DNA of 51,854 nucleotides. Source: Bilabrum cf. latius. Its lineage: Eukaryota. Location of the stretch: NCBI GenBank assembly GCA_965178125.1, contig CBCXTV010000008.1, positions 1 to 51,854 on the forward strand, given 5' to 3'. A program made the translations under genes and the position numbers. Every line of letters starts with the position of its first letter. The first letter of the stretch is position 1. Shown piece after piece: positions 4,343 to 50,667 of this stretch. The notes beneath the pieces are model-generated. The model was not told the origin of the DNA. It ran no database searches and was given only the letters and a program-made list of their open reading frames with translations.

Positions 4343-4618
4343 GGTCGAGAGACACCCGCCTGGCTTACGGGATCGTGCGCTCTTGAGCCCAAGTAGTACA
4401 TCAAGACGATCTGCATGACCATACGGCGGACTGCCATGGCTGCTGTGCAAAGGGGGTGAAGCTTTTGCTGGGTGAGCGCAAGGTGTTCGCAAGTCAGAAA
4501 GGCGTCTCGGGGTGCGCTATACAAACGTCAAAAGGAGAGACAAAGAGTCAAATGGCTTGCTGCAGCATTAGCCTGAGCCGTAGCTGCGAACAAGTCAATG
4601 AACAGTTGCACTGCGAGT
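4343..4618 (-). repeat. 3' LTR of copy 1 (276 bp)
   Basis: Direct repeat of 24014-24289 with about 4 differences. Element-strand ends ACTCGCAGTGCAA...TCTCTCGACC. Confidence 0.95.
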
Positions 4619-5119
4619 CTGGTGTGTCCTGGGCGAGCTGCACGGCCCAAGACAACCAGGCTGCAGGCCGTACATGCTCGAGCCCTGTATGGCCCGAACA
4701 TGCTCCTGTACTACGGTATCCGTCGGGACAATCCCGACACGTCCACACAAAGGATGAAAAGGCCGGGGTGTGCCGAGAACCACTCGGCAACCCCTAAAGC
4801 TTCCGACATCCTTGTCGGCTGTACTGTCAACGGTCGGCACGAGCAGCTCCTGCAGGCTTCAGCCGATCGGCATCCACACTGCAGAGCGCGGACGCAACTT
4901 GGGGAAAGAAACCCCACGGCATTGACCCACAGGCTTTCGCGCTGGCCTCGCGAGCCGAGCCTCGCCCGGCGTACCGACCTTGATGCCCCATTGAACTGAA
5001 TGCTGAAATGGCTGAGTGAGAGCTGCCCCGAGCAGGCTTCAACCGATCGGCATCCACACTACTCAGGGCTTCGCCAGAACTTCCTTCAGACTGCCACCCT
5101 GCAGCCTGACATCAGCGTC

Positions 5120-12841: not shown

Positions 12842-13179
12842 CGCGAAAAAAAAGTATGATGCGACGGGTGATCTACTGGCGCGGGCGGCGCGCGGCAAAA
12901 CCTGGGAGCAGTCTCCTGGGACCAGAGTCCTAGAAACGGCTAATGGCGGAATGATGCACACGTAGTGAATGCCATCCACTGCGGGGCGAAAGCAAGGACA
13001 CGACCGGTGGCTGGGCGAGATGACTTGATCGGATTGGCCTGTCGACTTCAGCCGATCGGCATCCGCACGACAGGCCACACACATGCTGCTTTGGTTCGCC
13101 GTGTCATCGCCCGAGTGGTCCACAGGCCGTTTCGCAGGCCACACCTCTGACGCATGCTGAATCAACATTCTGCCGGACA

Positions 13180-14880
13180 TCAAGGTATGCAACAAATCGC
13201 GAGACACGGCCCCCTTGGTGAGGCCGTCGGCTGTCATGTCGCGCGTGTCAAGCCAGACCATCGAGGACAAGACACGATGGTCCAAGAGCTCGCGCAAGTA
13301 TTGAACATGCACGAACAGCGATTTGTCTGCAGGAATCTTCACGGTGCTGGCTGTGACAGCTGCATACACCGACTTGGCATCAACGTACAAAGACATGGGG
13401 ACAAATCCTCCGCCCTCGCGTCGCGCGCGCGCACTCTCTGCTGTCATGGGCCCGATCTCAACTTCACACAGCATTTGGGCGACCAGAATGCCTTGGTCAA
13501 CCGCGTCGCCCGCCGAGAGGAGCTCGGCGGCGAACGTGCTGCGCGTGACGTGCCTTTGAGAACGGCATGCCCACTCAATGACGTGTGCTGGGGCTGTTCT
13601 GGTGAAGGAAGCAAGTTGGCTGGTGGGGTTCAGCCGATCGGCATCCCCATCACCAGCCCGTCCGGCATCTTGCAACTTTGCCTCGCCACTCGTCTCGCAC
13701 CTGAGGAACAAAGCACCACGGAGGCTGTAGCCATCCTCCGGCTCCTTCTTGAATGCAGCGTCCGACACAACACGCAGGTGTGGGACGCTCGTCCTATCAA
13801 ATGGCGCGAAGTGGAGCTTCTTGGGGTTGCGCTGCACCCATCGGAGCACCCGGTTGAGCTTGCGTGCATGCTCCACACGTGGCTTGGCAACATTGCGCTG
13901 GAGAGCGCAGATGAACACAAGAATGTCCACACGGGTGTGCGCCAAATATGCCAACGCGCCCAACAGAGATCGGTATAGGGCATGCAGCTCCGTTCCGACC
14001 TCGTCGTCGTCTGCTCCGGACGAGACCTGTGGATGCGCGATGGGCTTCAACGTGTTCGCAAAGTGGATTTGGTCCAACGTGACCGCTAGGGTCTTGGAGC
14101 ATTGAACATGGCGCACGCCGCAATTGGTGAACTCGTACTTGTTCACCTTGAGTTCGCCAAAGACCTTCTGAATCTCGGTCAAGACCGTCTGGACAACCGC
14201 AGGGTCCCCAGCGAACTTTAGGTCATCAACATGTTTGGTCATTATCAACTTCAGATCCCCCTGGTTGTCATGGTAGTAGCACAGCTCTTGGTCAACCGTG
14301 CTCGGCTGCAAGCCGCACTTGTCCCTCGTGACCATCTGTAGCTTGAGAGAGAAGGCGCGGGGTGCGTCAACCAGCCCCGTGCCCGGCTTGTCACAGTGCA
14401 GCACCTCTGTGCGGGGATCGAAGGTCTCGAAGCCTGGAATCTGTCGGAGTTGGGACATGTTGTATGCCGGAAGGTAGAAGTTGACCTCGCGTGCTGGTTC
14501 CCCCGTGAGCTTGGCAAGCTCCTCATAGGTGACGCCCTGGAGAAATGCCTTAGAGATATCGGCAGCACAGAGAACCCATCCGCGAAGAACGGCCTCAGAC
14601 ACAATGAGCTTCTGAGGAGCCCCTAGTCGATGTCCCGGCATAACGATCGATGTCCCACTTGTCGGCGTCCTTGAAACCACGTACGGTGAGTCGAGCTCGT
14701 ATCGTCCTCTTCGCGGTGGCTGACGAGTTCTGGAAGCCATAGCCTTCGTTGCGTCGACGGTCTGCTCCTCATACTTGAATTTGAACACCCAACGCGTATC
14801 GATCACGTTCCAAGCTTCCGTCTTCGGCTTGCGGCTGAAGCACTGCAACTTCGCCCAGGTCTGGAGCTCCTTGAGCATGG
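13180..14880 (-). CDS. Copia reverse transcriptase and RNase H domains (copy 1)
   Basis: ELQTW...IDTRWVFKFK, ADISKAFLQG, KPGTGLVDAPRAF, IMTKHVDDLKFAG, YRSLLGALAY, SDAAF, TRSTFAAE, DGLTKG. Confidence 0.93.
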
Positions 14881-16289
14881 CCCCCTCAATCTCCGGCCAG
14901 TGTTCATTGACCTGCTGAGGGGAGAGAACGTCGTCGTCCCGCTGCACCACGGCGCGCCTGGTGTTGTTGGTCTCCACCTTCAGCACCAGCTGTTCGTCAG
15001 ACTTGAGGACCCGGCCATCGGTCCACATGAGGTTCGCCGTGGGATACGGAACGATGAGCTCCACACTGTCGTCGAGCTTCTCGGGTGCATGAAGCATCGA
15101 GGCCGTATGGCCGAGGACATTGAGCTCGAGAAAGAGTTCCAGCGGGAGTCGATCTTCAGGTTGGAAAGAACTGTGAGGATCTGCCGGCTTCAGCCGATCG
15201 GCATCCACACGACAGTCCTCACACCTCGCTTCCGAGGTTTCGCCCGCCGAACCCGTAAGGAGCACCGTCGCGAGAACCTGCTGCATCGCAGGATCTTCGT
15301 GAATGAAGAACTCAGAGAGAAGAGACTGCCTGGTCCCGTCGCTGTCGCCGAGGTCACTGCTGCGCTCCTCTAGAATGGTCGACAACCTTTGCACGCTGTC
15401 AGTGGCCATCGACGCTGCGTCCGACGGGACGACACCGTTGTGTTGTGCCTGCTGCTCGACGAGATCCACGGACTCCGCGTTGCAGTAGAACTGGATCACG
15501 CAATACTTGGCCCAGCATGAGCCCACTGCTGCCTGCACGGAGAATCGAGGGATATGGCCGGCGTGATCTGCGACTTGTTCATGGAAGACATACGGTCCGC
15601 CGCCGCGTGGCCACATCATGCTGACGCACAGCTCATGCCCATGCGTTCCTCCGATGTAGCGTACGCCAACGCCGGCCTTCACCGCAACGACATTGTCGAG
15701 CTGGAGATGGTTTCCGCCAAAGAACCGAGCCGCGCACAGGAACTCCGCCCTGAACTGCGATGAGAGCGGGCTCGCGGTCCTGCGCCAGCCACTTGGCGTC
15801 TTCTCCGGGCCCAAGTTGATGGTGGTCCCTTCATTGATCTGATTTACCATTCGCACCACGGTCGACCACACGGTCCGATGCACGGGGCCCCGAAAGTGCC
15901 GGCACTTATATTGCACAACGTAGCGTAGGAAAGATGGCGCCTAACATGACGTATTGCCACCTCATACAATCCTCGCAACCAACGTAGCGTGATCATGCCC
16001 CGGGACAGGTTGGTGAGGTCGACCACGGTGGCTGGGCCGTACCATCCAGAGACGTCCTTGGTCGATGGTTCCCGGTAGAAGTCAACCTCGTCGCCCAACT
16101 GAAGATGGAGCTGCTCTCCCGCAATTGTAGTGCGAGTGCCAAGTGCTCGGTTGATCCTTGCCTGGGCCGACCCCTCGACAACGGCCTGAACGGCCAGCTC
16201 TCGTAGACGGTGTGTGCTCAAGAGGTCGGGGATCCTGGTCGCACCATCTGGATAGTCGATCTGGTCGGCACTGGGCAAGATATGCGGCA

Positions 16290-16930
16290 CTCGGCCATAG
16301 ACGGCATTGTACGGGGTTGAGCCATTGACGGTGAGGAGTGCATTGCCTGCGAAGACTGCCTCTGCGAGCACCCGTTCGAACGGAACGCTCAATCCGTCGA
16401 CGTTGCACTGCGTCACAAGTCGGTGCACGCAGTCTCGGAAAATGGCGCCCCGGCGCTCAATGTACCTCGCGTGCGTATCCTTGGGGCGCACCACCAAGCG
16501 CACACCATGGTGGTTCAAGAAGAGCTTCGCATCGTCGCTGCCTGAGATGCCTCCCTCGCCGTCCATGATAAGCTCCTTCGGAGGGCCGTGTGTCTGGAAC
16601 CAGAGACGGGAAATGCCGTTGGTCAACGTGGCTGCCTCCTTGTTCGGGATCACCTCGGCCGCATGCCACCTCGTGCAGCGGTCGAGCATGTGAAGAATGG
16701 TGTGCCCGGACATGAAGATCAGGTCGCACTCGACCTGCTCATTGAACCGATCAGGAATGGCTGCATTGCTCGCACTCGTTGGCCCTGGCCTGCTCCACTC
16801 ACGGCACACTGTGCACGAGTGCACGATACTAGGCACCAAGTCAAGTACCTTCTGCGGGACTCCTGCTCGGTGGAGCATACGCGTGAGCGTCTGAGCCGAG
16901 GCGTGCCACCATCTGACATGCAGCTTGCGC
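16290..16930 (-). CDS. Integrase HHCC and DDE core (copy 1)
   Basis: LHVRWWH...CTVC; FNEQVECDLIF; PKELIMDGEGG; HARYIERRG. Confidence 0.92.
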
Positions 16931-19900
16931 AAGACACGGCGAATGACTGCTTCATTGTTCGTGCGGAGAGCCCGGACCGAATTGCCAATGTCGAAGTGAG
17001 TCCAGTCCGGCTGCGGCGCCTCGCCGACGGCGGCATCAGCGTAGCGCGGCCTTGGAGCACGTCGTGGCCCACCCTGGCCTCGTCCGTCGACTGCATCGTC
17101 TGGCGCTTCCACCACATCCGGAGGCGGTGGCGGCGCCGGCCTATACTCCGCTGGTCCAGAGCTACGAGTAACTGTATCGGGCGAAGCGGCTTCAGCCGAT
17201 CGGCATCCACGCACTTCGCCCTGCTGCGCACGGTCTGCTGCTGCCACACGCTCTTCATCAGCCGTGCCCATGGGGCGGCCGTCGGGATCGATTGGAGCGA
17301 GCCTCGCCGTTGGCTCACTCGTGTCAGGAGGAACTGGGTCATGTGGACGGTCGCCTCGGGCAGCACGGGTGACTGGCACATAGCCAGAGGCAAATCGACA
17401 CTCCCCAAAACGTAGCGTGTGGGCAGGATCGCTCCGTTGGCATCTGTCTCGGCATGCCTGACACCCTGGGTAGAACGGAACAACATGGGGCCAAGCACAC
17501 TGGCCCACAATGCGGTTGTGCCCCGGGTCGTCCATGGCGATGTTGCGCTGGCATGCTGGACAAAGGCAGGCCTCGTTGCCAGGGGGCACACGTCGATCTC
17601 GAACTGGCTTCTGTCGCTGTCCCTGCGGTCGGGGCGTCAGCTGTGGCCCTGCGCGTGGCACTGCCCCTGAGCCAGAGCTGGAAGAAGACGACCCGACTGG
17701 GTACACGACACTGCCTGCATTGATCTGTTGCTCGAAACCGACTTCGACTGGGTAGCGCCCGACAAGTAGCGCAAGGTCGCTGCCCAACGATACGAGGTCG
17801 TCGCCACAGTCGTCGAAGTGGTCCTCGATGATCTTCGCCCGCTTCTTGGCAACATGGGGGTTGCCCGCCTCTTTCTGCATCTTGCGTCGCTCCTTCTCCT
17901 TCTGCTTCGCCTCTGTTGGGAACGCCAAGACTCCTCGGTCGCACTGCTGTTGTGGTCGGCTGCTGCTGTGGTCTGCTTCTGGGGCATGAGAGATCTGTGA
18001 TTCGCGTCCGCCCGAAGGCGGCTCCGTCGTGTTCATGTCCAATCGTCGATGGTACTTGTTGGATGATCTGCTGGGTCCGCCCGCGGGCGGGCCCGAACTG
18101 CTGAGTCTGGTGTGTCCTGGGACGCCCTGATCCCGACCGCCAGACACGCGTACCTGAGCACCCAGAAGGATCAACAGGGCAACCGCAAGTAGCACAAAGA
18201 TGCGACGGAAGAGGCCACACGTCGTCCCTCTCGTCGGAATGGAGTCACTGTCCGTGTCGTCTGGGAGGTGACATGTGCTGGCGACGTACACTTGCCGGTT
18301 GTCGCCGCTGTCGGGGACGAAAGTGCGAATGCCTCGGCGAACGAAGCGGAAGATGTCCGTGCCATGCATCTTGTTCCAAATGTCGAGCCAGGTATGTCGC
18401 TAGGTCTGCCGCTTGCCATCGGGCACCGAGAACACGGTAACGCTCGTGCCAGAGTTGATGGCAGGCATGACAAGGCTCTTCAGCGTGTGCTCGAACCCCG
18501 GGTTCATCTGTGGGGGCACCTCAACGAGCAGCTGCTTGCCCTGCCACGGAAGGTGGTCCTTGTTTCGGGCGCGCATCGCATCGGACAAGCGATGCAAGGC
18601 GCATCCGCTCAACCCGTGGTCCTTGCAGATGCTCAACTTCTGGCGACTGCCAATTACATGCGCGGTTCCCGCCACAAAGAATGCATTTAACCCTGAGGCA
18701 TTGAACACACCGCACGGATAGGCTGCGCAAGGTTTGTCAAAAGGGACCCCACCAGCTGCAGCCGATCGGCATCCACATGGTGGGGCCTGCACTCCCTCTG
18801 GCTGACTGGCAAAGTCCGCTCCCATGGTCTCGAGATGAACCGGAAGGATCGGGGGCGCCGGCGGTGCCGGGGACTTCGGCATGGTCGGCGCAACGGTGCG
18901 GAATGACACCACCTTGTTCCCGGGCTGCTCGGCCAAGGTTGGTTGCTCGCTGCTCTCCTGTGTCAGCAAGCTGATCTTCCTCGCCGCGAGGTTCTTCTCG
19001 CCGAAGTTGCTGCAGGGGAGCAGCAAGTGCCCGCTGGGTGACGTCTCAAGCTTGAAGCTCTCGGTGCCAGAAGGTAGCGCCTTTGTCAAGTCGTAGTCCC
19101 CTTCGCCGCAGAGGTACATGCGCATGTCCTGAAGGTCAAGGATCGCGCGAGCATTGCGCATGGTGGCCAGGCCCAAGAGACCTGGCAACTCCGAGTTCGG
19201 CACGATCGGAGTGATGAAATCGCCCAGGATGGCGTCGGCCCGTGTGTCGGACTTGAGCACGATGGGTAGGCGCACGTCCTTCTTGCACCACTGCGACCCG
19301 TGGCCGACCCCCGAGACACGGAGGGGCTTCGGCCTGGTGTACTCTGACGGGCGATATCCATGGTCAATCGCCTGAAGTCCGAGCTTCCGAGCCCATTGAT
19401 CACCGCAAAGGTTGCCCACGGAACCCGGGTCAATGAGGAGGGCGCTGCTGCCGTCAAGCGGTCTTGTGTTCATGTGGTAGTAGTCGCCAGCTCCATTGAC
19501 CCGCAGCGGTGCATCCTGGTAATGCATGTTCTCGTATGTCGTGTAATGGGTAGCCCCTTCCACCTCCGTCGTCACGTCGGTGGTCGTCTTTGGTTCCTTC
19601 GGCGTCGTCGTCACTTCGTCTTCCTCGGCACTCGAACTGAGCTCTGGGTCCACCTGCAACCACTGGAGCTCTGGCTTGGACATCGCGTACTGCCGGAAGG
19701 CCTGCTTGACCTTCGGAGCCCAAGCGGCAATCGGAGTGCTTAGGAGGCCGTCGACACGGTGAGAACTCGACTCCTTGGTGCCCGGCGGGTGGACGGCCCA
19801 CAGCACTGGAGCCTTCGCAAGGCCATCGCGAGAGTTCCCTTCGGCGTCAACGTAGGTCTTGACGTAGATGGCCTCGGTGCATTTCGGGCAGGTCAGCTGG

Positions 19901-22900
19901 TGGAACAGAGACTCGCATGCATCGGAGTCCTGAAGGTGTTTGTCGTAGTCGGCTAGGGCCTGCTCGAACTTGGCCCGGAAGACGCTGTGCTCCTGGTACT
20001 CGTAATCGCCGTAGCACTTGGCATGCATACGGCACCCGCACGAGAGAACCACCGTGTTGGACTCGGCAGACTCGACGTGGCCATCGTCGTGTTTCACCTC
20101 GTACCACGGCTTCTGGCAGACGGCGCAAGAGTCGTGGCTGCGGTCGCGAGGCTGCTCCTGCTCGCCAGCAGGCGGCCCCGCCGAACTGCCGGCAACGACA
20201 TCATCACATTGAGGTGCTGCCGGTGCGGTCGTCGCGGGCGCGTCGTCCCTGCGGGGTGTTGCTCGCCTAACCTGCAAGGGGTCCTCAACCGGTGTGTCAG
20301 GGGCGGCGCGCTTTTCCACGGACGACTCGCGGGGTTGCGACGTCGAACGCTCGGATGAACTGGGGCTGCGAGAGGTACGCCCTAGGCGTCGTATCCCCTG
20401 CTTCTCGATCGACTTCTGAACGTATGGCTTCCGACCCCTGCGTCGCAAAACTGGCGCCCGCGCAGACCCGAGGTTCTTGGCGGGCGCAGACGACGTCGCC
20501 GGAGGTGTTGGCTGAGTCAACTCGGCTGCCGCCCGGAACGGGGCGGCCAAGTCGAAAGACACGTCGTGCATCGAAACGTCCTGGCCCGCCGGCAAGGGGG
20601 CCAGGCTTGGGTACGTGATCGGCGTCTCGTCGAGCATGACTGCGCTCCCAATGCCTGAGGCTGGCGCCGACGGCGGCGCGGCTGGAGGCGGTCGGAGCTG
20701 CGGTCTCCACTCGGCATAGCCTGCAATGCCTTGGGCACTCGCAACGGGTGTAGAAGGCGCAATTGATCGACTCTGCGTAGTGCTGCTTCCCAGGGCGCTC
20801 TGCGCCACACTGATCACATTGAGCGCCACGTTCGTCAAAGCGCCCCATGCCTGACCACCAACCGTGTGAATTGCAGATTGGCTGGCGGGGTTCAGCCGAT
20901 CGGCATCCCCACCACCAGCCTGTCCGGCATCCGCATCGTTCACTGGCATCGTCTGGCCAACAAATGTGCCATACATTGAACGGCTCGGCACCGGCTGTGT
21001 CCGCTGCGTACTTCCACTGCTGGCCGAGTTCCTGTCTGGCGTGAACGACATGGGTACGCCGGTGGTGAACACTGGGACGCCCTTGGTGTTGGGGTTGCCC
21101 ACGTAGTTTGCGGTCGGCGGCTGAGTGCTTCCTGCTAGCCCTGTGTTCGGCGGTCTCGGGGCCGGCGTAGGCTGCGTCGGCCGAAGGCTGGCGTCGATCA
21201 GGTCCTGGTACATCGTCGACGGACTTGGGACCGGCGCCGGCTGCGTCGGCCGAAGACTGGCATTGATCAAGTCCTGGTATGCTGAGCCCACTGCGGCACC
21301 TGTGACCTGCATGGAGGCCTGCACGAGGGTGTGCTCGTAGAGCTCTTTGCCGATCTTGTCCCGCCAGCATTGACCCATCTCAGCAACATAGTCGCGGGGC
21401 TGCCGCGGCCCCTCGCGTTGCTCTGCTCCTTGCTGTTGCCGCAGGAGGTCCCGGTTCGATCGGATCACTTCGGCGAGATGATAGCTGCCGGGCCGAGCAG
21501 TCAAATGGTCGGCATCTCGGTAGAACTGGGGGGCGAAGTGTTCCTTCTTCTGCTTCGTGTGCTTGAAGAGCTCCACCACTGTGTCGCTCACTCGGTCGGC
21601 TGCTCGATCGGTGCTGGCGACCAGGTGTCCTCCGCCATCGTCGCGCTGGCAGTAGCCCTGTTGTCGCTGGTAGCCGTCCAAGCGCTTCTTCTCGTAAAGA
21701 GTCGGCAGTGGGGCAGCTCCTGGTTCATGGTCAACGACTGGTACTTCTTGTCCCAGGTGTACATGTCCTTCTCTTCAAACTTGTTGGTGCCACTGTCGCC
21801 ATCAGCGTACGACGGCTGCTGGCTGCTCGCGCTCGCGGGGAGGTAACCTGCCCTCACCAGACCCGGACCGGAGCCACTAGTGCTCGTGTGACTGGTGTGT
21901 GAGGCGGCTGCGTCGTCGCTGTACTGGGGGTTCGTCATGAAAACCTGGCGATAGTCACCGGACCCAGGGAATTGGTTCTACCTGGGAGTGGAAGAGGACT
22001 GTGGAATGTCCATCCACCACTTGGGCACGCGCAAGCTCTTCGTCGTTCCAGAGAGCGTCGGACGTGTCGACCGGCCTCGTCATGTGTGCGTTGACCATGA
22101 AGCCCTGGAACATCGGATTCCGCTCGGCGGGCCCTTGCGAGAAGGAAGATGCTGCACCTGGTCCCATCTGCCATTGCGACCACGAGTTCCCACCATAGTG
22201 GACAAGCTGATCGTTTCCGGATTTCCCTCCTTTCCCACCGCCCTTCTGAGGGCAGAGGAGCGGCGGCAAAGTGCTCCTCGGATCCGCAGATGCGACACGT
22301 CATCACCTTTCCATCTGATCCGACGGGATTCCGCATTCGTCCGAAACCACCTGCTGAGGAGACCTTGCCCTTTCCTTTTCCTTTTCCCTTCCCTTTGTTG
22401 AACAGGAAGGTGTTGAAGTCGTGCATGTCCTGGGGATCGCTGGCATCGGCTAGATATTGGTGGTGGCGCCGAGTGAAGGGCTTTCCCTGGTAGGGCCGTC
22501 TTTTCTAGAAGTGTCCGGCCTGGTCGCGACGAAATTTGAAGAAGCGGAAGGCCCTGCGGAACCGTCTGGTCGGGCGCCGCATCGTGCGGCGCCAATCTCG
22601 CTTGGCCTTTCGGTACTGGAAGTAGATCTGCTCGTCGCGCGTCTCGGCCTGACTGGGGTCGATGTCGTCCTCGCCGTAGTCAGAGGAGGTGGCCGACGAG
22701 GACTCGGCATCTGACTCATACAGCTCCCCATGGGTCATCAGGACGATCATATTGTCCTCGCCTTGCAGCGAGGTCGGAGCTCCCTTCGACTCGGCGACCG
22801 GAAAGACTGTTGCATATGAAGGCTGAGCGGCACAAGCTGACGAAGCGGCTTCAGCCGATCGGCATCCACACGCTCCGTCTTGCACATTGACCGGATTCCA

Positions 22901-24001
22901 TGCCATAGGGGTCGGCCCCTGATAGAAGCTAGGCACGCATGCCTTGGCTCCCTTGTCCGGCTTGCTGTCCTCATGCATGTGGGGCTGCTCCGCCTGGAAG
23001 TAGCGGGGCGCGTCATGGCGCGCCGGTCGAGCTCGGCTCCGTCCATCGGGGAAGGTCTCAGTGATGCCGACGAGGGGGTTGGACGCGTTCTGGTCCTGCA
23101 GGGAGGGGCATAGGACTTGATATCATTGACCATGTCCGTATAGCCAACCTGCGTCGTGGGCAAGACATGGTCCGGAAGGCGTCTCGTGATCTCCCACAAA
23201 GCGTGCTGCGGGAGCCCACTCAGTCGGACCATCTGGTGGCAGTGGTGACGCCACGGAAAGAACTCCTTCCCTTCTTCGAGCTGTCGTGTCCGGAGATACT
23301 CATAGCGATCGTGCATGTGTTCAAACGTCTCCGTCGGGTACCGCTCGAACCGGTGAAGCTCGTCGTCGATAGCGGCCTGATCGTCGGCCGCCCTGGGCGC
23401 ATACTTCTCCACGAGATCGGAGATGATCATCGACACAGGGTCCTGGACGTGGCCGGTCGCCTCATTCGTGCGGCCACGGACAAGGTCGGTCACCCTCCAT
23501 CGCTGTCGTAGGAGAGCGGCACTGCCCTGCAGACCGTTGGCGATGATGTTGCCTATCTCGTGGTGCTGGTATCGAGTGACACTGAGCCATAGCGCCTGCA
23601 GGTCCTCGATGTATTCCCGCAAGGTGTAGCCGCGATCGGCGGGGTTCCAAGAGGGCGGCGCCGTCAGGTTGCCCAACGTGATCGTGCGCGCTTGCATGTA
23701 CGGGATCGCGTAGGAGACGACGGAGAGGATTGCTGCAAGCACCATCGCGTGAGCCATCCCCAACATGTAGTGCACACGGCTGTGGATACCGTCGGAGGGC
23801 TGGGTACGCTGCTGCGCCATCGGGGTGATTTCCGACGTCCGGTCTGTCGTGCGGCTCGCCTCCGTCACGTCTGTCACCGATTGTTTCATTGAACCGTCAT
23901 CGTCAAGGCTGCCGCCGGGTGGTGAGTTCGGCGGCTCAGGCGTCTCCGAGGTCGGAGACGTAGGAGTGGATCGGTAGGACAGAAAGTCCTGCAACCACGC
24001 T

Positions 24002-24013
24002 GCTCCGCTACCA
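24002..24013 (-). promoter_or_regulatory. Primer-binding site, initiator-Met-type tRNA (TGGTAGCGGAGC)
   Basis: Starts TGG immediately after the 5' LTR and resembles the iMet PBS TGGTAGCAGAG. Identical in copy 2. Confidence 0.85.
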
Positions 24014-24289
24014 GGTCGAGAGACACCCGCCTGGCTTACGGGATCGTGCGCTCTTGAGCCCAAGTAGTACATCAAGACGATCTGCATGACCATACGGCGG
24101 ACTGCCATGGCTGCTGTGCAAGGGAGGTGAAGCTTTTGCTGGGTGAGCGCAAGGTGTTCGCAAGTCAGAAAGGCGTCTCGGGGTGCGCTATACAAACGTC
24201 AAAAGGAAAGACAAAGAGTCAAATGGCTTGCTGCAGCATTAGCCTGAGCCGTAGCTGCGAACAAGTCAATGGACAGTTGCACTGCGAGT
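24014..24289 (-). repeat. 5' LTR of copy 1 (276 bp)
   Basis: Direct repeat of 4343-4618, followed by the PBS. Confidence 0.95.
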
Positions 24290-30683: not shown

Positions 30684-30942
30684 ACTCGCAGTGCAACCGT
30701 TCAATGCCTTGTTCGCAGCTACGGCTCAGGCTAATGCTGCAGCAAGCCATTCGCGTTTCTGTGTTTGTATAGTCCTTTCACCGTGACACTTCCCGTGCCT
30801 GCGTATTCCCTGCGCTCAGAAACATCACTCCCTTGCGAGCAGCCATGGCATTCCGCTGTGTGGTCATGCAGATCGTCTTGACGTACTACTTGGGCTCAAG
30901 AGCGCACGATCACGGAAACCAGGCGGGAGGTGTCTCTCGACC
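30684..30942 (+). repeat. 5' LTR of copy 2 (259 bp)
   Basis: Direct repeat of 50407-50667 (5 substitutions and one 2-bp indel by eye). Confidence 0.95.
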
Positions 30943-30954
30943 TGGTAGCGGAGC
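30943..30954 (+). promoter_or_regulatory. Primer-binding site, initiator-Met-type tRNA (TGGTAGCGGAGC)
   Basis: TGG directly after the LTR end; same as copy 1. Confidence 0.85.
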
Positions 30955-31064
30955 AGTGTGGTTGCAGGACTTTCTCTCCTACCGATCCGCTCCTACGTCT
31001 CCGACCTCGGAGACGCCTGAGCGCGAACTCACCACCCGGCGGCAGCCTTGACGATGACGGTTCA

Positions 31065-34000
31065 ATGAAGCAATACGTGACAGACGTGACGGAGGCGAGC
31101 CGCACGACAGACCGGACGTCGGAAAGCACTCTGAAGGTGCAGCAGCGCATCCAACCCTCCGACGGTATCCACAGCCGTGTGCACTACATGTTGGGGATGG
31201 CCCACGCAATGGTACTTGCAGCAATCCTCTCCATCGTCTCCTACGCGATCCCGTACAGGCAAGCGCGCCAGATCACGTTGGGCAACCTAGACGGCGCCGC
31301 CCTCCTGGAACCCCGCCGGTCGCGGCTACACCTTGCGGGAATATATCGAGGACCTGCAGCGTTGGCTCAGTGTCACCCGGTACCAGCACCACGAGATAGG
31401 CAACATCATCGCCAACGGTCTGCAGGGCAGTGCCGCCTCCTACGACAGCGATGGAAGACGACCGACCTTGTCCGGGGCCGCACGAACGAAGCGACTGGCC
31501 ACGTCCAGGACCCCGTGTCGATGATCATCTCCGATCTCGTGGAGAAGTATGCGCCCAGGGCGGCCGACGATCAGGCCGCCATCGACGACGAGCTCCATCG
31601 GTTCGAGCGGTATTCGACGGAGACGTTTGAACAAATGCACGACCGCTATGAGTATCTACGGACGCGACAGCTCGAAGAGGGGAAGGAGTTCTTTCCTTGG
31701 CGCCACCATTGCCACCAGATGATCCGACTGAGTGGGCTTCCGCAGCACGCCTTGTGGGAGATTACAAGACGCCTTCCGGACAATGTCTTGCCCACGACGC
31801 ATGTTGGATACACGGACATGGTCAAGGACATCAAGACCTACGCCCTCTTGAAGGACCAGAATGCGTCCAATCCCCTCGTCGGCATCACCGAGACCTTCCC
31901 GATGGACGGAGCCGAGCTCGACCGGCGCGCCACGACGCGCCTCGTTACTTTCAGGCAGAGCAGCCCCAGATGCTTGTCGACAGCAAGTACAGCGAGAGGG
32001 CCCAGGCGTGCGCACCGAGCTTCTATCAGGGGCCGACCCCGATGACATGGAATCCGGTCAATGTGCAAGACGGAGCGTGTGGATGCCGATCGGCTGAAGC
32101 GCTTCGTCAGCTTGTGTCGCTCAGCCCTCATATGCATCAGTCTTTCGGCCGCCGATTCGAAGGGAGCTCCGACCTCGCTGCAAGACGAGGACAACATGGT
32201 CTCCTGATGACCCATGGGGAGTTGTACGGGTCAGACGCCGAGTCCTCGTCGGCTACCTCCTCCGACTACGGCAGAGGACGACATCGACCCCAGTCAGGCC
32301 GAGACTCGCGACGAGCAGATCTACTTCCAGTACCGAAAGGCCAAGCGAGATTGGCGCCGAGCGACGCGGCGCCCTACCAGACGGTTTCGCAGGCCTTCCG
32401 CTTCTTTAAGTTTCGTCGCGATCAGGCCGGGCACTTCCAGAAGAGACGACCGTACCAGGAAAGCCCTTCACTCGGCGCCATCACCAGTACCTAGCAGACG
32501 CCAGCGACCCTCAGGACATGCACGATTTCGGCACCTTCCTGTTCAACAAAGGAAAGGGAAAAGGAAAAGGAAAAGGCAAGTTCTCCACAGCAGGTGGTTT
32601 CGGGCGCCTGCGGAACCCCGTTGGATCCGATGGGAAGGTGATGACGTGTCGCATCTGCGGGTCCGAGGAGCACTTTGCCGCCCGCTGCCCTCAGAAGGGC
32701 GGTGGGAAAGGAGGACAATCCGGAAACGATCAGCTGTGCACTATGGTGGGACTCCATGGTCCTCATGGCAGATGGGCCCAGGTTCTACATCTTCCTTCTC
32801 ACAAGGGTCCGCCGAGCGCAATCCGATGTTCCAGGGCTACATGGTCAATGCACACATGACTAGGCCGGTCGACACGTCCGGCGCCCTCTGGAACGACGAG
32901 AGCTTGCGCGCGCCCCAGTGGGGGATGGACACTCCACAGTCCTCTTCCACTCCCAGGTTGAACAATTCCCTGGGTCTGGTGACTTTCGCCAGGTCTTCAT
33001 GACGAACTCCCAGTACAGCGACGACGCAGCCGCCTCACACACCAGTTCCACGAGCACTAGTGGCTCAGTTCCGAGTCTGGTGAGGGCAGGTTATCTCCCC
33101 GCGAGCGCGAGCAGTCAGCAGCCGTCGTATGCTTGTATGGCGACAGTGGCACAGCAAGTTTGAAGAGAAGGACACGTACACCTGGGACAAGAAGTACCAG
33201 TCGCAGACCATGAATCAGGAGCTTCCCCACTGCCGACTCTCTATGAGAAGAAACGCTTGGACGGCTACCAGAGGCAACAGGGCTACTGCCAGCGCGACGA
33301 TGGCGGAGGACACCTGATCGCCAGTACTGATCGAGCAGCCGACCGAGTGAGTGACACAGTGGTGGAGCTCCTCAAGCACACCAAGCAGAAGAAGGAACAC
33401 TTCGCCCCTCAGTTCTACCAAGACGCCGACCGTTTGAATGTTCGGCCCGGCAGCTATCACCTCGCCGAAGTGATCCGATCGAACCGGGACCTCCAGCGGC
33501 AACAGCAAGGTGCAGAGCAGCGCGAGGGGCCGCGGGCAGCCTCGCGACTACGTTGCTGAGATGGGTCAATGCTGGCGGGACAAGATCGGCAAGGAGCTCT
33601 ATGAGCACACCCTCGTGCAGGCCTCCATGCAGGCCACAGGTGCCGCTGTGGGCTCGGCATACCAGGACTTGATCAATGCCAGTCTCCGGCCGACGCAGCC
33701 TGCGCCGGTTCCAGGTCCTTCGATGATGTACCAGGACCTGATCGACGCCAGCCTTCGGCCGATGCAGCCTACACCGGCCCCGAGACCGTCGAATTCAGGG
33801 CCAGCCGGGAGCACTCAGCCGCCGACCGCAAACTATGTGAGCAACCCCAACACCAAGGGCGTCCCAGTGTACACCTCCGGCGCACCCATGTCGTTCACTC
33901 CAGACAGGAACTCGGCCAGCAGTGAAAGCACGCAGCGAACACAGCCGGTGCCGAGCCGCTCAATGTATGGCACATTTGTTGGCCAGACGATGCCAGTGAA

Positions 34001-37000
34001 CGATGCGGATGCCGGACATGGTGGTGGTGGGGATGCCGATCGGCTGAACCCCGCCAGCCAATCTGCAATTCACACGGTCGGTGGCCAGGCATGGGGCGCT
34101 TTGACGAATGTGGCGCTCAATGTGATCAGCGTGGCTCAGAGCGCCCTGGGAAGCAGCACTACGCAGAGCTATTCGATTGCGCCCTCGACACCCGTTGTGA
34201 GTGCCCAAGGCATTGCAGGCCATGCCGAGTGGAGACCGCAGCTCCGTCCGCCTACAGCCGCGCCGCCGTCGGCGTCGGCCTCAGGCATTGGGAGCGCAGT
34301 CATGCTCGACGAAACGCCGATCACGTACCCGATCCTGGCCCCCATGCCGGCGAGCCAGGACGTTTTGATGCACGACGTGACCTTCGATGTGTCCGCCCGT
34401 TCCGGGCGGCAGCCGAGTCGATTCAGCAAACATCTCCGGCGACGGCGTCCGTGCCCGCGAAGGACCCTGAGCTTGCACGGGCGCCAGTCTCGCGACGTAC
34501 GAATCGGAGGACACCCGTTCAGAAGGTGACCAAGAAGAAGGAGGCACAACGCCGAAGGCGCACCTCACGCAGCCCAGTTCATCAGAGCGTTCGCCGTCGC
34601 AAGTCCGCGAGTCGTCCGTGGAAAAGCGTTCCGCCCCCGACACACCGGTTGAGCACCCTTTGCAGGTCAGGCGAGCAACACCCCGCATGAACGACGCGCT
34701 CACGACGACCGCACCGACAGCCCCTCAATGTGACGATGTCGTCGCCGGCAGTTCGGCGGGGCCGCTTGTTGGCGAGCAGGAGCAGTATCACGACCACAGC
34801 CACGACTCCTGTGCTGTCTGCCAGCAGCCGTGGTGCGAGGTGAAGCACGACGATGGCTGCGTCGAGTCTGTCGAGTCCAACACGGTGGTTCTCTCGTGCG
34901 GGTGCCGTTTGCATGCCAAGTGCTACGGCGAGTACGAGTATCAGGAGTACAGCGTCTTCCGGACCAAGTTCGAGCAGGTCATAGGTGACTACGACCATCA
35001 CCTGCAGGGATCCGATGCATGCGAGTCCCTGTTCAACTATCTGACCTGCCCGAAGTGCACCGAGGCCATCTATGTCAAGACCTATGTTGACGCCGAAGGG
35101 AACCCTCGCGATGGCTTGGCGAAGGCCCCCGTGTTGTGGGCCGTCCACCCGCCGGGCACCATGGAGCCGGGTTCTCATCGTGTTGACGGCCTCTTAAGCA
35201 CTCCGACTGCTGCTTGGGCTCCAAAGGTCAAGCAGGCCTTCCGGCAGTACGCGATGTCCAAGCCGGAGCTCCAGTGGCTGCAAGTGGATCCAGAGCTCAG
35301 TTCGAGTGCGGAGGAAGACGAAGTGACGACGATGCTGAACGAACCAAAGACGACCACCGACGTGACGACGGAGATGGAAGGGGCAACCCACTACACGACA
35401 TACGAGAACATGCACTATCAGGACGCACCGCTGCGGGTCAATGGAGCTATGGCGACTACTACCACATGAACACGAGGCCGCTTGACGGCAGCAGCGCCCT
35501 CCTCATTGACCCGGGCTCCGTGGGTAACCTCTGCGGTGATCAATGGGCCCTTGGACTTCAAGCGATCGACCATGGGTATCGACCGTCAGAGTACACCAGG
35601 CCGAAGCCCCTCCGCGTTTCGGGGGTCGGCCACGGGTCGCAGTGGTGCAATAAGGACGTGCGTTTGCCCATCGTGCTCAAGTCCGACACAAGAGCCGACG
35701 CCATTTTGGGCGATTTCATCACTCCGATCGTGCCGAACTCGGAGCTGCCAGGTCTCTTAGGCCTGGCCACCATGCGCAATGCTCGCGCGATCCTCGACCT
35801 TCAGGACATGCGTATGTACCTCTGTGGCGAAGGGGACTACGACTTGACGAAGGCGCTGCCTCCTGGCACGGAGAGCTTCAAGCTTGAGACGTCACCCAGT
35901 GGTCACCTGCTGCTCCCCTGCAGCAACTTCGGCGAGAAGAGCCTCGCGGCGAGGAAGATCAGCCTGCTGACGCAGGAGAGCAGCGAGCAACCGACCATGG
36001 CCGAGCAGACCGAGAACAAGGTGGTGTCGTTTCGCACTGTGGCGCCGACCACGCCGAAGTCCCCGGCACCGCCGGCGCCCCCGATCCTTCCGGTCCATCT
36101 CGAGACCATGGGAGCGGACTTTGCCAGTCAGCCAGAGAGAGTGAAGGCCCCACCATGTGGATGCCGATCGGCTGAAGCTGGTGGGGTCCCTTTTGACAAA
36201 CCTTGCGCAGCCTATCCGTGCAGTGTGTTCAATGTCTCAGGGTTCAATGCATTCTTTGTGGCGGGAACCGCGCATGTGATTGGCAGTCGCCCGCCAGAAG
36301 TAGAGCATCTGCAAGGACCACGGGCTGAGCGGCTGCACCCTGCACCGCCTGTCCGACGCGATGCGCGCCCGCAACAAGGACCATCTCCCGTGGCAGGGCA
36401 AGCAGCTGCTCATTGAAGTGCCCCCACAGATGAACCCCGGGTTCGAGCACACGCTGAAGAGTCTGGTCTTGCCTGCCATCAACTCTGGCACGAGCGTCAC
36501 CGTGTTCTCTGTGCCCGATGGCAAGCGGCAGAGCCAGCGACACACCTGGCTCGACATTTGGAACAAGGTGCATGGCACGGACATCTTCCGCTTCGTTCGC
36601 CGAGGCATTCGCACTTTCGTCCCCGACAGCGGCGACAACCGTCAGGTGTATGTCGCCAGCACATGCCGCCTCCCAGACGACGCAGACAGCGACTCCATTC
36701 CAACGAGAGGGACGACGTGTGGCCTCTTCCGCCGCATCTTCGTGTTACTTGCGGTTGCCTTGTTGATCCTCTTGGGTGCCAAGGTACTTGCGTCTGGCGG
36801 CCGGGATCAGGGCGTCCCAGGACACACCAGACTCAGCAGTTTGGGCCCGCCCGCGGGCGGACCCAGCAGATCACTCAACAAGTACCACCTACGCGTGAAC
36901 ACGAACACGACAGAGCCGCCTCCGGGCGGACACGAACTCCAGACACAGCAGGCCCCAGAAGCAGGACACAGCGGCAGCCAGTCACAACAGCAGTGCGATC

Positions 37001-48000: not shown

Positions 48001-50100
48001 CGTGCCGCAAGCAGGCCGACGAGTTTCCACTACCGCGAGATGGCCGAGAAGATGGCGGAGCGCATGGCATCCAAGGTCGACGACGACGCATGCCATTCCT
48101 ACCGCCGCTTGATCAATGACTGCCGCCACCAGGACGAGCCGGCCGAGATCAGCCACATGACAGAGGCGAAGGAGAGCGGCGAGTGGAGCATCCCTTGTGG
48201 CTCGATGGGGCCAGTGGGGGTCATCGGGCCGCTTCCGCCACTTTCTTACGGCCGGGAGATTGACAAGGACAACAAGGGCTTGAGACTCCTCACCGGGATG
48301 TTTGGGTTCATGAACCCCGCCGACACCGTTGACGCGATAAATGCGAGGCCAGCCAACGGCGGTTTTGTTGCTTCCCTCGGCCAGATGTCGAAGAGCAAGT
48401 TGAAGGCGGTCGGACACCAATTTGAATCAAGCTCAATGGTCGAGCCGCTCGCCAAAGCCATGTTCCAGTTCTGGGTCGACGGCCGGCGGAAGAAGCGCCG
48501 ATTGGCCAACGCGTTCGCTGACTTCATCCCGGCGAAGCCCATGGATGAGCCAGACCTGGAGAAGTGGGCCGCAGAGTGCACGTGTGCGATCGGGCCAGTG
48601 CAGTCCACCTCTTCATCTTTCTTCTCAATGCTGTCCCGCTATCCGAACTACTACGAGCCCTGTCGCGGCGTTGGCGAGCTCCGGGAGAAGTTTGCCCAGC
48701 AGGAGCACGACCAGCGCGAGAAGGGCAATGTTGTGCTTCGGACGGCCGCCCAGTGCAGATCCTCTGATCAATGTTACCGACGCCATGAGGTGGGCACACG
48801 GGCCCCCAAGTGGCCCGCCATCCGGAGCGCGCACATCTCTCTGCGCGACGACGACGACGACAGTTCCGACAGCGATTGGGACAGTGAGTCCGTTCACCAC
48901 AAGCCATGGATCCCAACAGATCGGTCCGTCCACGTTCAAGAGGCCATCGAGACCTACATCACGAGCAACCTCCAGGCCATCGTGGACGCACCGGAGGTCT
49001 TCTTCCAGTGGCAACCCGCGTACGACCAAGTGCTCCCGTGGCATTTGACCTTGAAGAGGGACCTGCCGAAGAAGCATAGGAACTTCTGGGAGTACGAGTG
49101 TCCAAATGGGGAGCGGAAGCGAGCATACCAGCAGCAGATCGTGAGGATGGACGAGCACGGCCGCGAGGACTACCTCTACAGGCCGAACGAGCGGCAGGAT
49201 ATCAGTTTCCCCGTGTTGTGGGACAATCTGTCGTTCATCCAGGCCTACATCCGACGCCATCGATTCCTTGAGCGACGGCCGTCCCGCGCTCCCGATGGTA
49301 TGGCGGGAGGTTCGTCTCCGCCAGGTGGCTCAAGGAGCATCCGGACGTCGGGAAGTGGTACTTCTCATTGAAGGGCAACGGCAAGCTGACCGACGAGGAC
49401 GTTGCCGCATTCGGGGACATCCACGATGAAGAGGCGATGACGAAGATCAGCAAGATCGGGACCGAGTTGTTCAAGGACATCGCCGAGAAGGTTGGCGATT
49501 GTATTGCGATGATGACGGTCCCTGAGTTCATTGCCAGGATCTACCAGAGTGCCTACACGGGCATGTTCCCGCCGATCATGCACGCCATGCTCGGCCGCCA
49601 CGCGGACTACGTCATGGAGCGCGTGTTGACCGAGGTTGAGACAGTGCCGCTGTGGACGGCAATGACGACGACGACCAAGACGAGGAGATGAGCAGTGCGA
49701 GTCCTCCCGGCGAGACTGGGGCCCAGGAGAGCAAGGCCCCGACGAAGGATACGACGGCGCCGATGGAGGACGAGGATCCCGACTGGGGTCCCTAGAACGA
49801 CGATGTCAGGCTTAATGCAGGGTGGCAGTCTGAAAGTAGCTTGGTGAAGCCCCGAGTAGTGTGGATGCCGATCGGCTGAAGCCTACTCGGGGCAGCTCTC
49901 AATCAGCCATTTCAGCATTCGGATCAATGGGGCATTGAGGTCGGAAAGCCGGACGCTCGGCTCACGGCTCACGAGGTCAGCATGAAAGCTTGTGGGTCAA
50001 CGCCGTGGAGCTTCTCCCTTCGAATGACATCTGCGCGTTGCAGTGTGGGTGCCGTTCAATGCTCTGCGGTGTGGATGCCGATCGGCTGAAGCCCGCAGGT
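32068..50100 (+). repeat. 13 dispersed stem-loop repeats in copy 2
   Basis: Cores at about 32077, 34027, 36155, 37725, 39725, 41288, 41870, 42168, 44582, 46179, 46794, 49859 and 50069, orthologous to the 13 in copy 1. Confidence 0.95.
42089..49795 (+). pseudogene. Accessory ORF2 of copy 2 (frameshifted; ART-like and RNase III-like motifs)
   Basis: ORFs 42089-43843, 43870-45624, 45407-47203, 46900-49371 and 49368-49691 tile the region. Protein is highly similar to copy 1 ORF2 with many third-position changes. Confidence 0.8.
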
Positions 50101-50406
50101 GCTGCAGCCCGTGCCGACCAGTGACAGTACAGCCGACAAGAATGTCGGGAGCTTTAGGGGTTGACACAGCGGTTCTTGACACACCCCGGCCTTCCTTTGT
50201 TCATCCTTTGCGTGAACGCGTCGGGCCTGGCCCGACAGACACCGCAGTATAGTCTGTTTGCGAAGGCGGGCACGATATGAGCCCTATGCGCTGCGAGCGC
50301 GACCTCCGCAACCTTTTCGTTCAATGTTCGGGCCATACAGGGCTCGAGCATGTACGACCTGCAGTCTGACTGTCTTGGGCCGTACCGCTCGCCCAGGACA
50401 CACCAG

Positions 50407-50667
50407 ACTCGCAGTGCAACCGTTCAACGCCTTGTTCGCAGCTACGGCTCAGGCTAATGCTGCAGCAAGCCATTCGCGTTTCTCTGTTTGTATAGTCCTT
50501 TCACCGTGACACTTCCCGTGCTTGCGTATTCCCTGCGTTCAGAAACATCACTCCCTTGCGAGCAGCCATGGCATTCCGCTATGTGTGGTCATGCAGATCG
50601 TCTTGACGTACTACTTGGGCTCAAGAGCGCACGATCATGGAAACCAGGCGGGAGGTGTCTCTCGACC
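50407..50667 (+). repeat. 3' LTR of copy 2 (261 bp)
   Basis: Direct repeat of 30684-30942. Confidence 0.95.

Follow-up and report, generated by a model that had tools for sequence, protein, structure and literature searches.

Arrays of sense-strand hairpins with a near-invariant head along 20-kb copia-type retrotransposons

The window analysed here comprises 51,854 nucleotides of Bilabrum cf. latius (contig CBCXTV010000008.1 of GenBank assembly GCA_965178125.1, positions 1 to 51,854 of the forward strand) and holds two copies of a copia-type long terminal repeat (LTR) retrotransposon. The copies are inverted relative to each other, measure about 20 kb each and are 91.3% identical over 19,932 aligned bases. 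Along each copy runs an array of 13 hairpins that set one near-invariant head on differing outer stems. These hairpins are confined to the element and to its sense strand, their heads are conserved, their helices covary, they are translated through where they lie in coding sequence, and they have been gained by insertion or duplication. We interpret them as selected cis-acting RNA modules on the sense RNA of the element, recognised by a protein and most likely serving packaging or condensation into virus-like particles, and assign this reading a rough probability of one half.

Head conservation, folding and covariation of the array

A preliminary description of this DNA had counted 13 heads per copy, all in sense orientation and none outside the copies, and a dedicated search bears out this count. 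With up to two mismatches allowed, the 18-nt head GGATGCCGATCGGYTGAA has 26 matches in the window, against a mean of 0.02 in 100 shuffles. Twenty-four of them are exact, one (18757) carries one mismatch and one (39730) carries two. Thirteen heads occupy the minus strand at 4858-22867 and thirteen the plus strand at 32081-50090. All 26 lie inside an element copy in the sense orientation of that copy, and the rest of the window, about 12 kb outside both copies, contains none. The covariance model R1, whose construction is given below, returns exactly the same 26 sites over the whole window and no others. Spacing between plus-copy heads ranges from 210 to 3065 nt; the interval of 1.5-2.5 kb that had been put forward as typical applies to 7 of the 12 intervals, and the first 1.4 kb of the element is free of hairpins. 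The two obvious head defects in the window, the loss of 1 nt after 32099 and one additional base at 39732, are private to these copies, and contigs show many other genomic copies to be intact.

All 13 plus-copy sites fold with the common head on an outer stem peculiar to the site, and at nine of them the shuffle z-score is -2 or below. This agrees with the earlier proposal of one head on differing stems; the individual stems quoted in its support were found as well. From the outside inward, each module consists of a variable outer stem (about 6-11 pairs), one bulged U, two covarying pairs (G with C/U, and U/G/C with G/C/G), a symmetric internal loop of GGAU opposite UGAA, a 3-bp helix of GCC/GGC and a GAUC loop. 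The 18-nt core can alternatively be read as GGA, an inner helix of four positions (a U-U and three Watson-Crick pairs), a tetraloop, the returning strand of the helix and GAA. The opposed GGA and GAA, a 3x3 purine loop, could form three stacked pairs of the G-A type. In the window element, the apex of the head is a perfect palindrome of 10 nt. Dimerisation through a palindromic apex was considered and set aside as a general explanation, the apex being palindromic only in the window family and in one related family (L001). The Rfam 15 covariance models gave no match at gathering score over the window and, over 30600-50700, three chance matches only (E>=0.49), none of them at a hairpin. Known Rfam families, hammerhead and other small ribozymes included, were rejected on this basis.

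Evidence for the helices comes from the comparison of sites within the element. Across the 26 sites, 82.8% of stem cells pair, compared with 64.4% in shuffles, and the covariation score of 0.544 (0.193 in shuffles) is reached by 0 of 500 shuffles; slid registers score at most 0.18. In the outer arms, G-U pairs number 20 and A-C pairs 8, and 16 of the 26 sites retain a U-G closing pair. The excess of G-U over A-C, together with the U-G closing pair, favours the sense strand as the folding strand, and the folded molecule would be RNA rather than plus-strand DNA.

The strand preference also bears on a DNA-level signal, in which cruciforms or hairpins in the cDNA or the chromosome would serve integrase, recombination or replication. 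The palindromic apex of the window family fits such a use, as do contigs that join different hairpins, for example 33998 to 41268. We nevertheless consider it highly improbable: on the opposite strand the G-U pairs, the closing pair among them, become A-C mismatches, the head lacks symmetry and keeps one strict orientation, the apices of most other families are not palindromic, and the contig joints lie at repeats longer than 31 nt and are possible assembly artefacts.

Comparison of the two copies separates the heads from their surroundings. Heads, taken as 23 nt each, differ between copies at 5 of 299 positions (1.7%), whereas the rest of the element, which is mostly coding, differs at 1718 of 19,399 (8.9%; Fisher p=4.4e-7), making the heads about 5-fold more conserved. 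Among the five head changes, three replace a G-C pair by G-U. Stem arms differ at 16 of 234 positions (6.8%), a rate not distinct from the background. In the more intact copy, 9 of the 11 coding sites read DADRL(K/N) and the other 2 read GCRSA(E/A), while two further sites follow the last long open reading frame (ORF) and belong to the 3' untranslated region (UTR). The third frame, which contains TGA in 25 of the 26 heads, is never the open one. Because two frames are used and some copies are untranslated, the hairpins are translated through and yet the peptide is not what is conserved. These observations support purifying selection on the nucleic acid rather than on the peptide. The preliminary description had argued for the same, and the roughly fivefold conservation of the heads, the use of two frames and the UTR, the excess of G-U pairs and the compensated changes found in relatives all side with it.

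Stem changes between the copies are less decisive. Eleven single changes keep pairing, mostly through G-U, and one is compensatory; this is the change noted earlier between 4855 and 50069, which is real (G-C against A-T). Another 13 changes gain or lose a pair, 6 of them being an alignment artefact of the 1-nt deletion in hairpin 1 at 32099. Taken alone, the copy-to-copy comparison of stems is therefore weak; the strong evidence is that across sites and across families.

Frame usage is also informative beyond the window. No family examined keeps to a single frame; the site counts are 9:2 in the window element, 9:1 in L005, 8:2 in L012, 8:6 in L029 and 21:3:3 in L014. Proteins related to the reverse transcriptase (RT) ORF come from marine and other metagenomes, and several have recurring short peptides of their own. 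One of them (P0003) carries 11 repeats of the QPTE/QQTE/PPTE type in one frame, mostly after glycine or serine; other recurring peptide motifs occur in P0037, P0043, P0008, P0006, P0030 and P0041. A peptide signal, such as protease cleavage sites or linkers in a giant polyprotein with nucleotide conservation as a secondary effect, would account for the single frame of the P0003 repeats, for the bias towards DADRL(K/N) at 9 of 11 sites, and for the position of the sites between protein domains, where they are spaced like mature polyprotein products. Its odds are very slim in view of the other frame at 2 of 11 sites, the untranslated copies (2 of 13), the two to three frames in all families examined, the invariance of synonymous positions and the complementary flanks, which a peptide does not need.

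Related families and the gain of modules

The distribution of the motif outside the family was examined in the window, in 82 related loci and in one metagenome-assembled genome (MAG) of 2.3 Mb. The loci comprise 4 from mis-binned MAG contigs and 78 from metagenomes. Copia relatives in metagenomes, with 33-74% RT identity, share an 18-nt architecture of the form GRA-4bp-tetraloop-4bp-GAA on which each family places its own head. At up to three mismatches, family heads occur 11 times in sense orientation in L005, 7 times in L007, 2 in L006, 4 in L001, 4 in L009, 10 in L012 and 5 in L024, with 0 in antisense orientation in each of these loci. In the MAG (G001), 6 of 6 heads fall in copia contigs.

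Six families have exactly the 18-nt architecture. Their cores read GGA UGCC GAUC GGCU GAA in the window element, GGA UUCC GGUG GGAU GA(A/U) in L005, GAA UCCU UAUC AGGU GAA in L024, GGA GAAC GUUC GUUC GAA in L001, GGA AGUC AUUC GACU GAA in L009 and GAA GGGG GUUU CCCC GAA in L012. Variants within single elements are compensated: sites 1367, 8668 and 10666 of L005 have G-C where the others have U-A, site 10490 of L009 replaces U-A by C-G, and site 3944 of L012 replaces G-C by C-G. An ungapped alignment of 48 modules contains 45 distinct sequences, and all 45 form the three inner pairs, each pair occurring in 3-5 types. The covariation score across families is 0.745, compared with 0.181 in shuffles (reached by 0 of 500), and slid registers give at most 0.29.

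Model R1 was built from this 48-module alignment and searched in 541 kb on both strands. It returned 86 matches at E<=1, 71 of them at E<=0.01, and all 86 lie on the sense strand. The matches include families outside the model (L015, L049, L073 and L010/L011/L008), where the inner helix varies from site to site and GGA/GAA and the tetraloop type are kept.

In more distant families (RT identity about 40%), the arrays consist of simpler hairpins whose conserved apices are different. The apex CAAUCAUG of L014 occurs 27 times in sense and once in antisense orientation, and L018, L020, L029 and L047 each have apices of their own. Within L047, two head types coexist, GGCUC-UCG-GAGUC (6 sites) and GGCAC-UCG-GUGUC (5 sites), which differ by a compensated pair. 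The hairpin is a clade-wide motif class with a family-specific head rather than a feature unique to the window element. The earlier view of an element-specific RNA signal therefore stands with regard to the sense strand and is amended with regard to uniqueness, as relatives carry their own versions.

The placement of the modules in protein indicates how they were acquired. Protein segments conserved with the L005 group (26% coverage) contain none of the 11 coding sites (P=0.035). An uninterrupted ORF of 3326 codons in L005 accommodates six hairpins, which indicates that the modules are compatible with an intact element. A surface loop of RNase H illustrates discrete gains. This loop has 37-39 residues in six families and 60 in the window element, where it holds one hairpin and is 63 nt longer than in L005, the closest relative. 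It reaches 61 residues with two hairpins in L013/L014/L018, and 75 residues with three tandem hairpins in L020 (L020:5112-5336, where the peptide SSEIITA appears three times). Furthermore, hairpins 6 and 2 of the window element have about 60 nt in common, flanks included, with 38 of 60 flank positions matching where the background is 10-26. The lengths of the hairpins are not divisible by three. For about eight window sites, L005/L007 have a hairpin at an approximately corresponding position. At the one such site inspected closely, the stems are unrelated and the reading frame differs, so individual sites need not be of common descent. The modules have thus been gained by insertion or duplication into permissive protein loops, after which the head stays constant and the stem drifts with pairing kept. 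Two further contig joins between hairpins (39674 to 50064, and 41322 back to 34074), like the one from 33998 to 41268, may be recombinants between modules or assembly artefacts and are not used as evidence.

Secondary insertion of a miniature inverted-repeat transposable element (MITE) or a short interspersed nuclear element (SINE), the alternative named in the preliminary description, was examined and is contradicted by the sites. Neither constant terminal inverted repeats nor a constant body is present, as the outer stems vary and the apex alone is constant. Flanking direct repeats measure 0-1 nt at 24 of the 26 sites and 3 nt at the other 2, target-site duplications are absent, and the hairpins are sense only, with none outside the copies in the window.

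A broader form of this idea holds that the hairpins are selfish or neutral palindromic mini-inserts, spread by template switching during reverse transcription, tolerated in frame in loops and devoid of function. The discrete gains in permissive loops (an RNase H loop 63 nt longer than that of L005, and two or three hairpins there in other families), the duplication of hairpin 2 with its flanks as hairpin 6, the merely rough match of positions between families with frames that can differ at matching positions, and the avoidance of conserved protein segments by all 11 coding sites would follow from it. Even so, we regard it as quite unlikely. Functionless inserts leave unexplained why conservation of the head exceeds that of the coding sequence around it 5-fold while stems change at the background rate, why identical heads sit on stems without similarity, why helix variants within elements are compensated, why orientation is strictly sense (86/86) and why the UTR copies are kept too; target-site duplications and constant terminal repeats are also missing.

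Possible readers and functions of the modules

In the reading that we favour, the modules would act in cis on the sense RNA of the element, genomic or messenger. The internal loop is common across families, while the inner helix and loop are family-specific and yet near-invariant within an element, a pattern that points to a trans-acting factor co-evolving with each family. The reader would most likely be encoded by the element itself, as Gag or a zinc-finger region or as an RNase III-like domain. With 10 to 27 module copies over 10-20 kb of RNA, binding of this protein to the hairpins would mark full-length RNA in a multivalent and family-specific manner, and the marked RNA would be selectively packaged and condensed into virus-like particles.

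Several points weigh against this. Covariation among paralogous palindromes can come simply from their birth as inverted repeats, the comparison of orthologous stems is no better than neutral (12 changes keep pairing against 7-13 that break it), and the function of the hairpins is wholly inferred. Known packaging signals of retroelements cluster near the 5' end and are not dispersed, and here the first 1.4 kb has no hairpin. The concerted change of heads at many sites between families is left without explanation. The distant families (L013-L021 with the CAAUCAUG apex, and L029/L047) have no purine loop, which may make one common reader doubtful. Finally, the candidate RNase III-like domain is detectable only in the window family and L005/L007, and not in other hairpin loci with long downstream sequence.

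An extended version of the packaging reading, less probable than that reading itself, is put forward tentatively. It would see these elements as a clade of giant marine-protist copia elements with a modular RNA 'barcode' of 10 to 27 hairpins set into coding sequence at permissive protein loops, in which a conserved 3x3 purine loop is combined with a family-specific apex, an element-encoded reader recognises the combination, and the element packages its own RNA. The reader, co-evolving with the element, might be an RNase III-like domain that binds double-stranded RNA, and recognition, condensation and packaging would be limited in each family to the full-length RNA of that family. Duplication within the element would supply new modules, and heads would change in concert when specificity shifts.

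The RNase III-like domain deserves separate consideration. It is predicted within ORF 9008-11491, downstream of RT/RNase H. Confidence in its AF2 model is low, with a mean pLDDT of 50 and values of 60-80 in the matched part. Of the top 30 rows of a structural search with VIA-align against representatives, about 28 are RNase III, Dicer or Drosha folds (Z 4.6-8.6); unrelated proteins set in at Z 3.8. The matches include Giardia Dicer (Z 8.6), Entamoeba RNase III (Z 8.6) and bacterial RNase III (Z 7.1-8.3), as well as Mini-III, Drosha and plant DCLs. An independent feature-based search gave a weak pointer to RNase III clusters (0.76-0.79). Foldseek against the PDB was not significant, Pfam gave no match for the domain, a profile search against PDB sequences produced two chance rows only, and a word-indexed homologue search with ORF 9008-11491 found nothing. 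Of the 15 proteins retrieved by a full HMMER search with this ORF, most are fragments from within the family. To the eye, the second motif retains a D-x-x-E pair that the distant homologues P0078-P0080 also conserve, while the first, N-terminal acidic signature cannot be made out. L005/L007, which have the GGAU/UGAA head, conserve the domain (E 1e-43). Its hidden Markov model block was not detected in other hairpin loci, including L012, L014, L021, L047 and L009; many hairpin-bearing loci are short or end early, so a missing match there is no proof of absence. On the strength of the model, we propose a previously unannotated RNase III-like fold as a candidate trans-acting partner of the hairpins.

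Such a domain may also be used differently. The hairpins could be its substrates or docking sites, either for regulated cleavage or processing of the long RNA or, with high affinity, for holding a protein that binds or cleaves double-stranded RNA on the genome, for example to blunt host RNA silencing. Besides the encoded fold, the feature-based pointer and the retention of the domain in the two loci that share the GGAU/UGAA head, this idea draws on geometry. With stacked G-A pairs, the hairpin amounts to about 16-20 helical steps capped by a tetraloop, and some RNase III enzymes measure substrates of about 16-20 steps from a tetraloop. We rate it as rather unlikely, given the low confidence of the structure model, the non-significant Foldseek, Pfam and PDB-sequence profile results, the N-terminal acidic signature that by eye is not conserved, and the lack of detection in L012, L014, L021, L047 and L009 despite their hairpin arrays; cuts inside ORFs would, moreover, destroy both genome and message. 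Among the functions listed in the preliminary description (packaging, export, processing and anti-silencing), the predicted domain would keep processing and anti-silencing open as candidates.

The probability is likewise low that the hairpins attract a host factor which promotes nuclear export, translation or stability or protects the RNA from silencing. The hairpins would then resemble constitutive transport elements, with many copies adding efficiency. A purine internal loop conserved between families at 43-74% RT identity is what a conserved host reader would be expected to produce, and copies are present in the 3' UTR too. A fixed reader, however, fails to explain an inner helix and loop that are nearly invariant within families and differ between them; distant families use quite different heads, and Rfam holds no match to a known element.

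Comparison with known systems places the packaging reading in context. Packaging signals of single-stranded RNA (ssRNA) viruses are short and degenerate. Dispersed signals of this kind, and the assembly that they mediate, are described for ssRNA viruses (PMC6281560, in part). As in the arrays reported here, many stem-loops run through a coding genome and present one recognition motif on variable stems, and multivalent action has been proposed for them as we propose it here. Unlike those signals, the head here spans 18-23 nt, is near-invariant within a family and has a defined internal loop, and the carrier is an LTR retrotransposon. Packaging (Psi) signals form a single cluster near the 5' end. 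Such regions are described for retroviruses and Ty elements, among them a purine loop bound by Gag in MMTV (PMC8096270, in part) and the region of Ty1 (PMC6844567, in part). They share with the present hairpins a location in retroelement genomic RNA and an unpaired or non-canonically paired purine motif on a helix; in contrast to Psi, 13 copies are spread here from 1.4 kb to the 3' UTR, with none in the 5' leader.

In form, the internal loop recalls the non-canonical stem of box C/D kink-turns, in which GA opposite GA is followed by U-U and then by Watson-Crick pairs. At the level of sequence, GA opposite GA, then U-U and G-C are found at all 26 sites. The box C/D kink-turn was nonetheless rejected: its defining three-nucleotide bulge is missing, the loop is symmetric (4x4 or 3x3), and the only bulge is a single U two pairs away. 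RNase III processing hairpins, such as the sites in phage polycistronic RNA and the tetraloop-measured substrates of yeast, lie between genes and are cut. The arrays resemble them in their repeated internal-loop hairpins along a long transcript and in the presence of an RNase III-type domain, and differ in lying inside ORFs that are read through.

In evolutionary terms, in-frame palindromic inserts are the closest parallel. In Rickettsia palindromic elements and mitochondrial GC clusters, the whole unit or the terminal repeats are conserved. Introner elements of Amoebophrya form hairpins, are flanked by direct repeats of 3-5 nt and are spliced out (PMC7789003, in part). Like these inserts and introners, the present modules are short hairpin sequences found repeatedly in coding sequence and specific to a lineage. 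They differ in that the apex alone is conserved, stems vary, direct repeats are absent, orientation is strictly sense and the module stays in the ORF. An Amoebophrya-type introner was rejected in particular because boundary direct repeats are missing, the hairpins leave the ORFs open and the frame with the stop codon goes unused. Since the defining features of kink-turns, hammerheads, MITEs and introners were tested and are lacking, the hairpins fall outside these families. Conceptually, the nearest systems are RNA-virus packaging signals of the dispersed type and the purine loops to which retroviral Gag binds; tandem G-A motifs are nearest in form, and in-frame palindromic inserts in evolution.

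Searches of the literature and Rfam, which did not extend to supplementary files, returned no description of such hairpin arrays in retrotransposons, and a literature search with the palindrome string gave primer-type matches only among the papers listed. Dinoflagellate copia elements of about 10 kb have been described, in the accessible part of that paper without mention of hairpins (PMC5776459). The arrays suggest a previously undescribed signal by which the elements mark their own RNA.

Such a signal is of interest because the selection of their own RNA by LTR retrotransposons, especially very long ones, is poorly understood beyond a few model elements. The 18-nt RNA module is sharply defined and directly testable, and the families provide a natural 'allelic series' in which the fold is constant and helix and loop differ. 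With model R1, this clade can be annotated in the genomes of protists and in metagenomes; its abundance is very high in three sequenced organisms or more. The arrays also illustrate that a translated polyprotein can accommodate structured RNA signals, the price being inserted peptide loops, and the presence of an unannotated gene in a retrotransposon, if indeed RNase III-like, would bear on the conflict between transposons and RNA silencing.

The carrier element and its surroundings

The carrier is a Ty1/copia LTR retrotransposon, as both flanking LTRs and an integrase upstream of an RVT_2-type RT are present. Coordinates of the two copies, their domains and all hairpins are collected in Table 1. 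The LTR pair of copy 1 (4340-4618/24011-24289) is 98% identical and that of copy 2 (30684-30862/50407-50585) 97% identical, and long ORFs on the sense strand occupy most of both copies. The copia order is evident from the integrase core in ORF 15844-18399, upstream of the RT in ORF 12557-15940. A total of 43 homologues of the RT ORF back the copia assignment, many with PF07727 on record, and the RVT_2 match of one relative (P0007) scores 33.7 bits, over the Pfam cut-off of 31.6 bits. The element family is extremely abundant in three organisms, as an active and successful family would be, and 63,371 contig pieces were matched for sequencing run X1.

Table 1. Positions of the elements, protein domains and hairpins in the window
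Feature	Coordinates	Strand	Remarks
Copia-type LTR element, copy 1	4340..24289	-	More intact; covered mostly by long ORFs; rve and RVT_2 matches
Copia-type LTR element, copy 2	30684..50585	+	Inverted relative to copy 1
Integrase core (rve), copy 1	16492..16746	-	Pfam E 1.2e-3, below curated cut-off
Reverse transcriptase (RVT_2), copy 1	14156..14611	-	Pfam E 9.8e-5, below curated cut-off
Putative RNase III-like all-alpha domain, copy 1	9422..9868	-	ORF 9008-11491, downstream of RT/RNase H; AF2 model and structural search; coordinates of hidden Markov model block
Putative RNase III-like domain, copy 2	45049..45499	+	Split by frameshift
Hairpin 1, copy 2	32066..32112	+	Private 1-nt deletion in 3' arm; missing C present in other genomic copies
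Hairpin 2, copy 2	34016..34062	+	Head match, fold, R1 match
Hairpin 3, copy 2	36144..36190	+	Head match, fold, R1 match
Hairpin 4, copy 2	37714..37760	+	Head match, fold, R1 match
Hairpin 5, copy 2	39714..39761	+	Private 1-nt insertion in head; extra base not in other genomic copies
Hairpin 6, copy 2	41277..41323	+	RNase H surface loop; ~60-nt duplicate of hairpin 2
Hairpin 7, copy 2	41859..41905	+	Head match, fold, R1 match
Hairpin 8, copy 2	42157..42203	+	Head match, fold, R1 match
Hairpin 9, copy 2	44571..44617	+	Head match, fold, R1 match
Hairpin 10, copy 2	46168..46214	+	Head match, fold, R1 match
Hairpin 11, copy 2	46783..46829	+	Head match, fold, R1 match
Hairpin 12, copy 2	49848..49894	+	3' UTR; head match, fold, R1 match
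Hairpin 13, copy 2	50058..50104	+	3' UTR; head match, fold, R1 match
Hairpin 1, copy 1	22836..22882	-	Head match, R1 match
Hairpin 2, copy 1	20877..20923	-	Head match, R1 match
Hairpin 3, copy 1	18743..18789	-	One head substitution
Hairpin 4, copy 1	17177..17223	-	Head match, R1 match
Hairpin 5, copy 1	15175..15221	-	Head match, R1 match
Hairpin 6, copy 1	13615..13661	-	RNase H loop; R1 match
Hairpin 7, copy 1	13033..13079	-	Head match, R1 match
Hairpin 8, copy 1	12727..12773	-	Head match, R1 match
Hairpin 9, copy 1	10300..10346	-	Head match, R1 match
Hairpin 10, copy 1	8706..8752	-	Head match, R1 match
Hairpin 11, copy 1	8090..8136	-	Head match, R1 match
Hairpin 12, copy 1	5024..5070	-	3' UTR; R1 match
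Hairpin 13, copy 1	4844..4890	-	3' UTR; R1 match

Other parts of the coding sequence are less readily classified. In ORF 15844-18399, at about residues 280-335 (17400-17560, minus strand), two C-x2-C...H...C motifs of unusually long spacing are seen by eye. They sit between a conserved acidic 'DHFDDCGDD' block and the integrase and are kept in P0007 and other relatives; going by this pattern, the region may be a nucleic-acid-binding module. In ORF B (18400-21774, minus strand), a stretch rich in Cys and His resembles a RING and a region with 'LIDPGS ... ILG' resembles retropepsin; Pfam gave no match for this ORF. Downstream of RNase H, at 11344-12741 (minus strand), lies a conserved domain common to residues ~1000-1130 of P0003, in which the conserved region reads '...PPGT.LA.DGT.P..AV.R.VA.P...LW...'; it has no family match. 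For the accessory ORFs downstream of RT/RNase H, Pfam gave no family even at E<=5, and an Atlas search with ORF 5120-7342 gave no usable match. A cytosine methyltransferase in the N-terminal region of P0007-type relatives was considered from a look by eye only and dropped, Pfam lending it no support.

The spacer between the copies (26000-30000) has a G+C content of 0.70-0.73, compared with about 0.60 in the elements, and contains long ORFs in several frames without a Pfam family. An assembly gap of 200 N is located at 25244-25443. Pfam likewise found no family in the flanking ORFs of the window, and no flank genes are recognisable apart from a weak RVT_1 reverse-transcriptase fragment (E 0.009) at 30005-30700 on the minus strand. 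This fragment adjoins the 5' LTR of copy 2, which suggests that copy 2 was inserted into or beside another retroelement.

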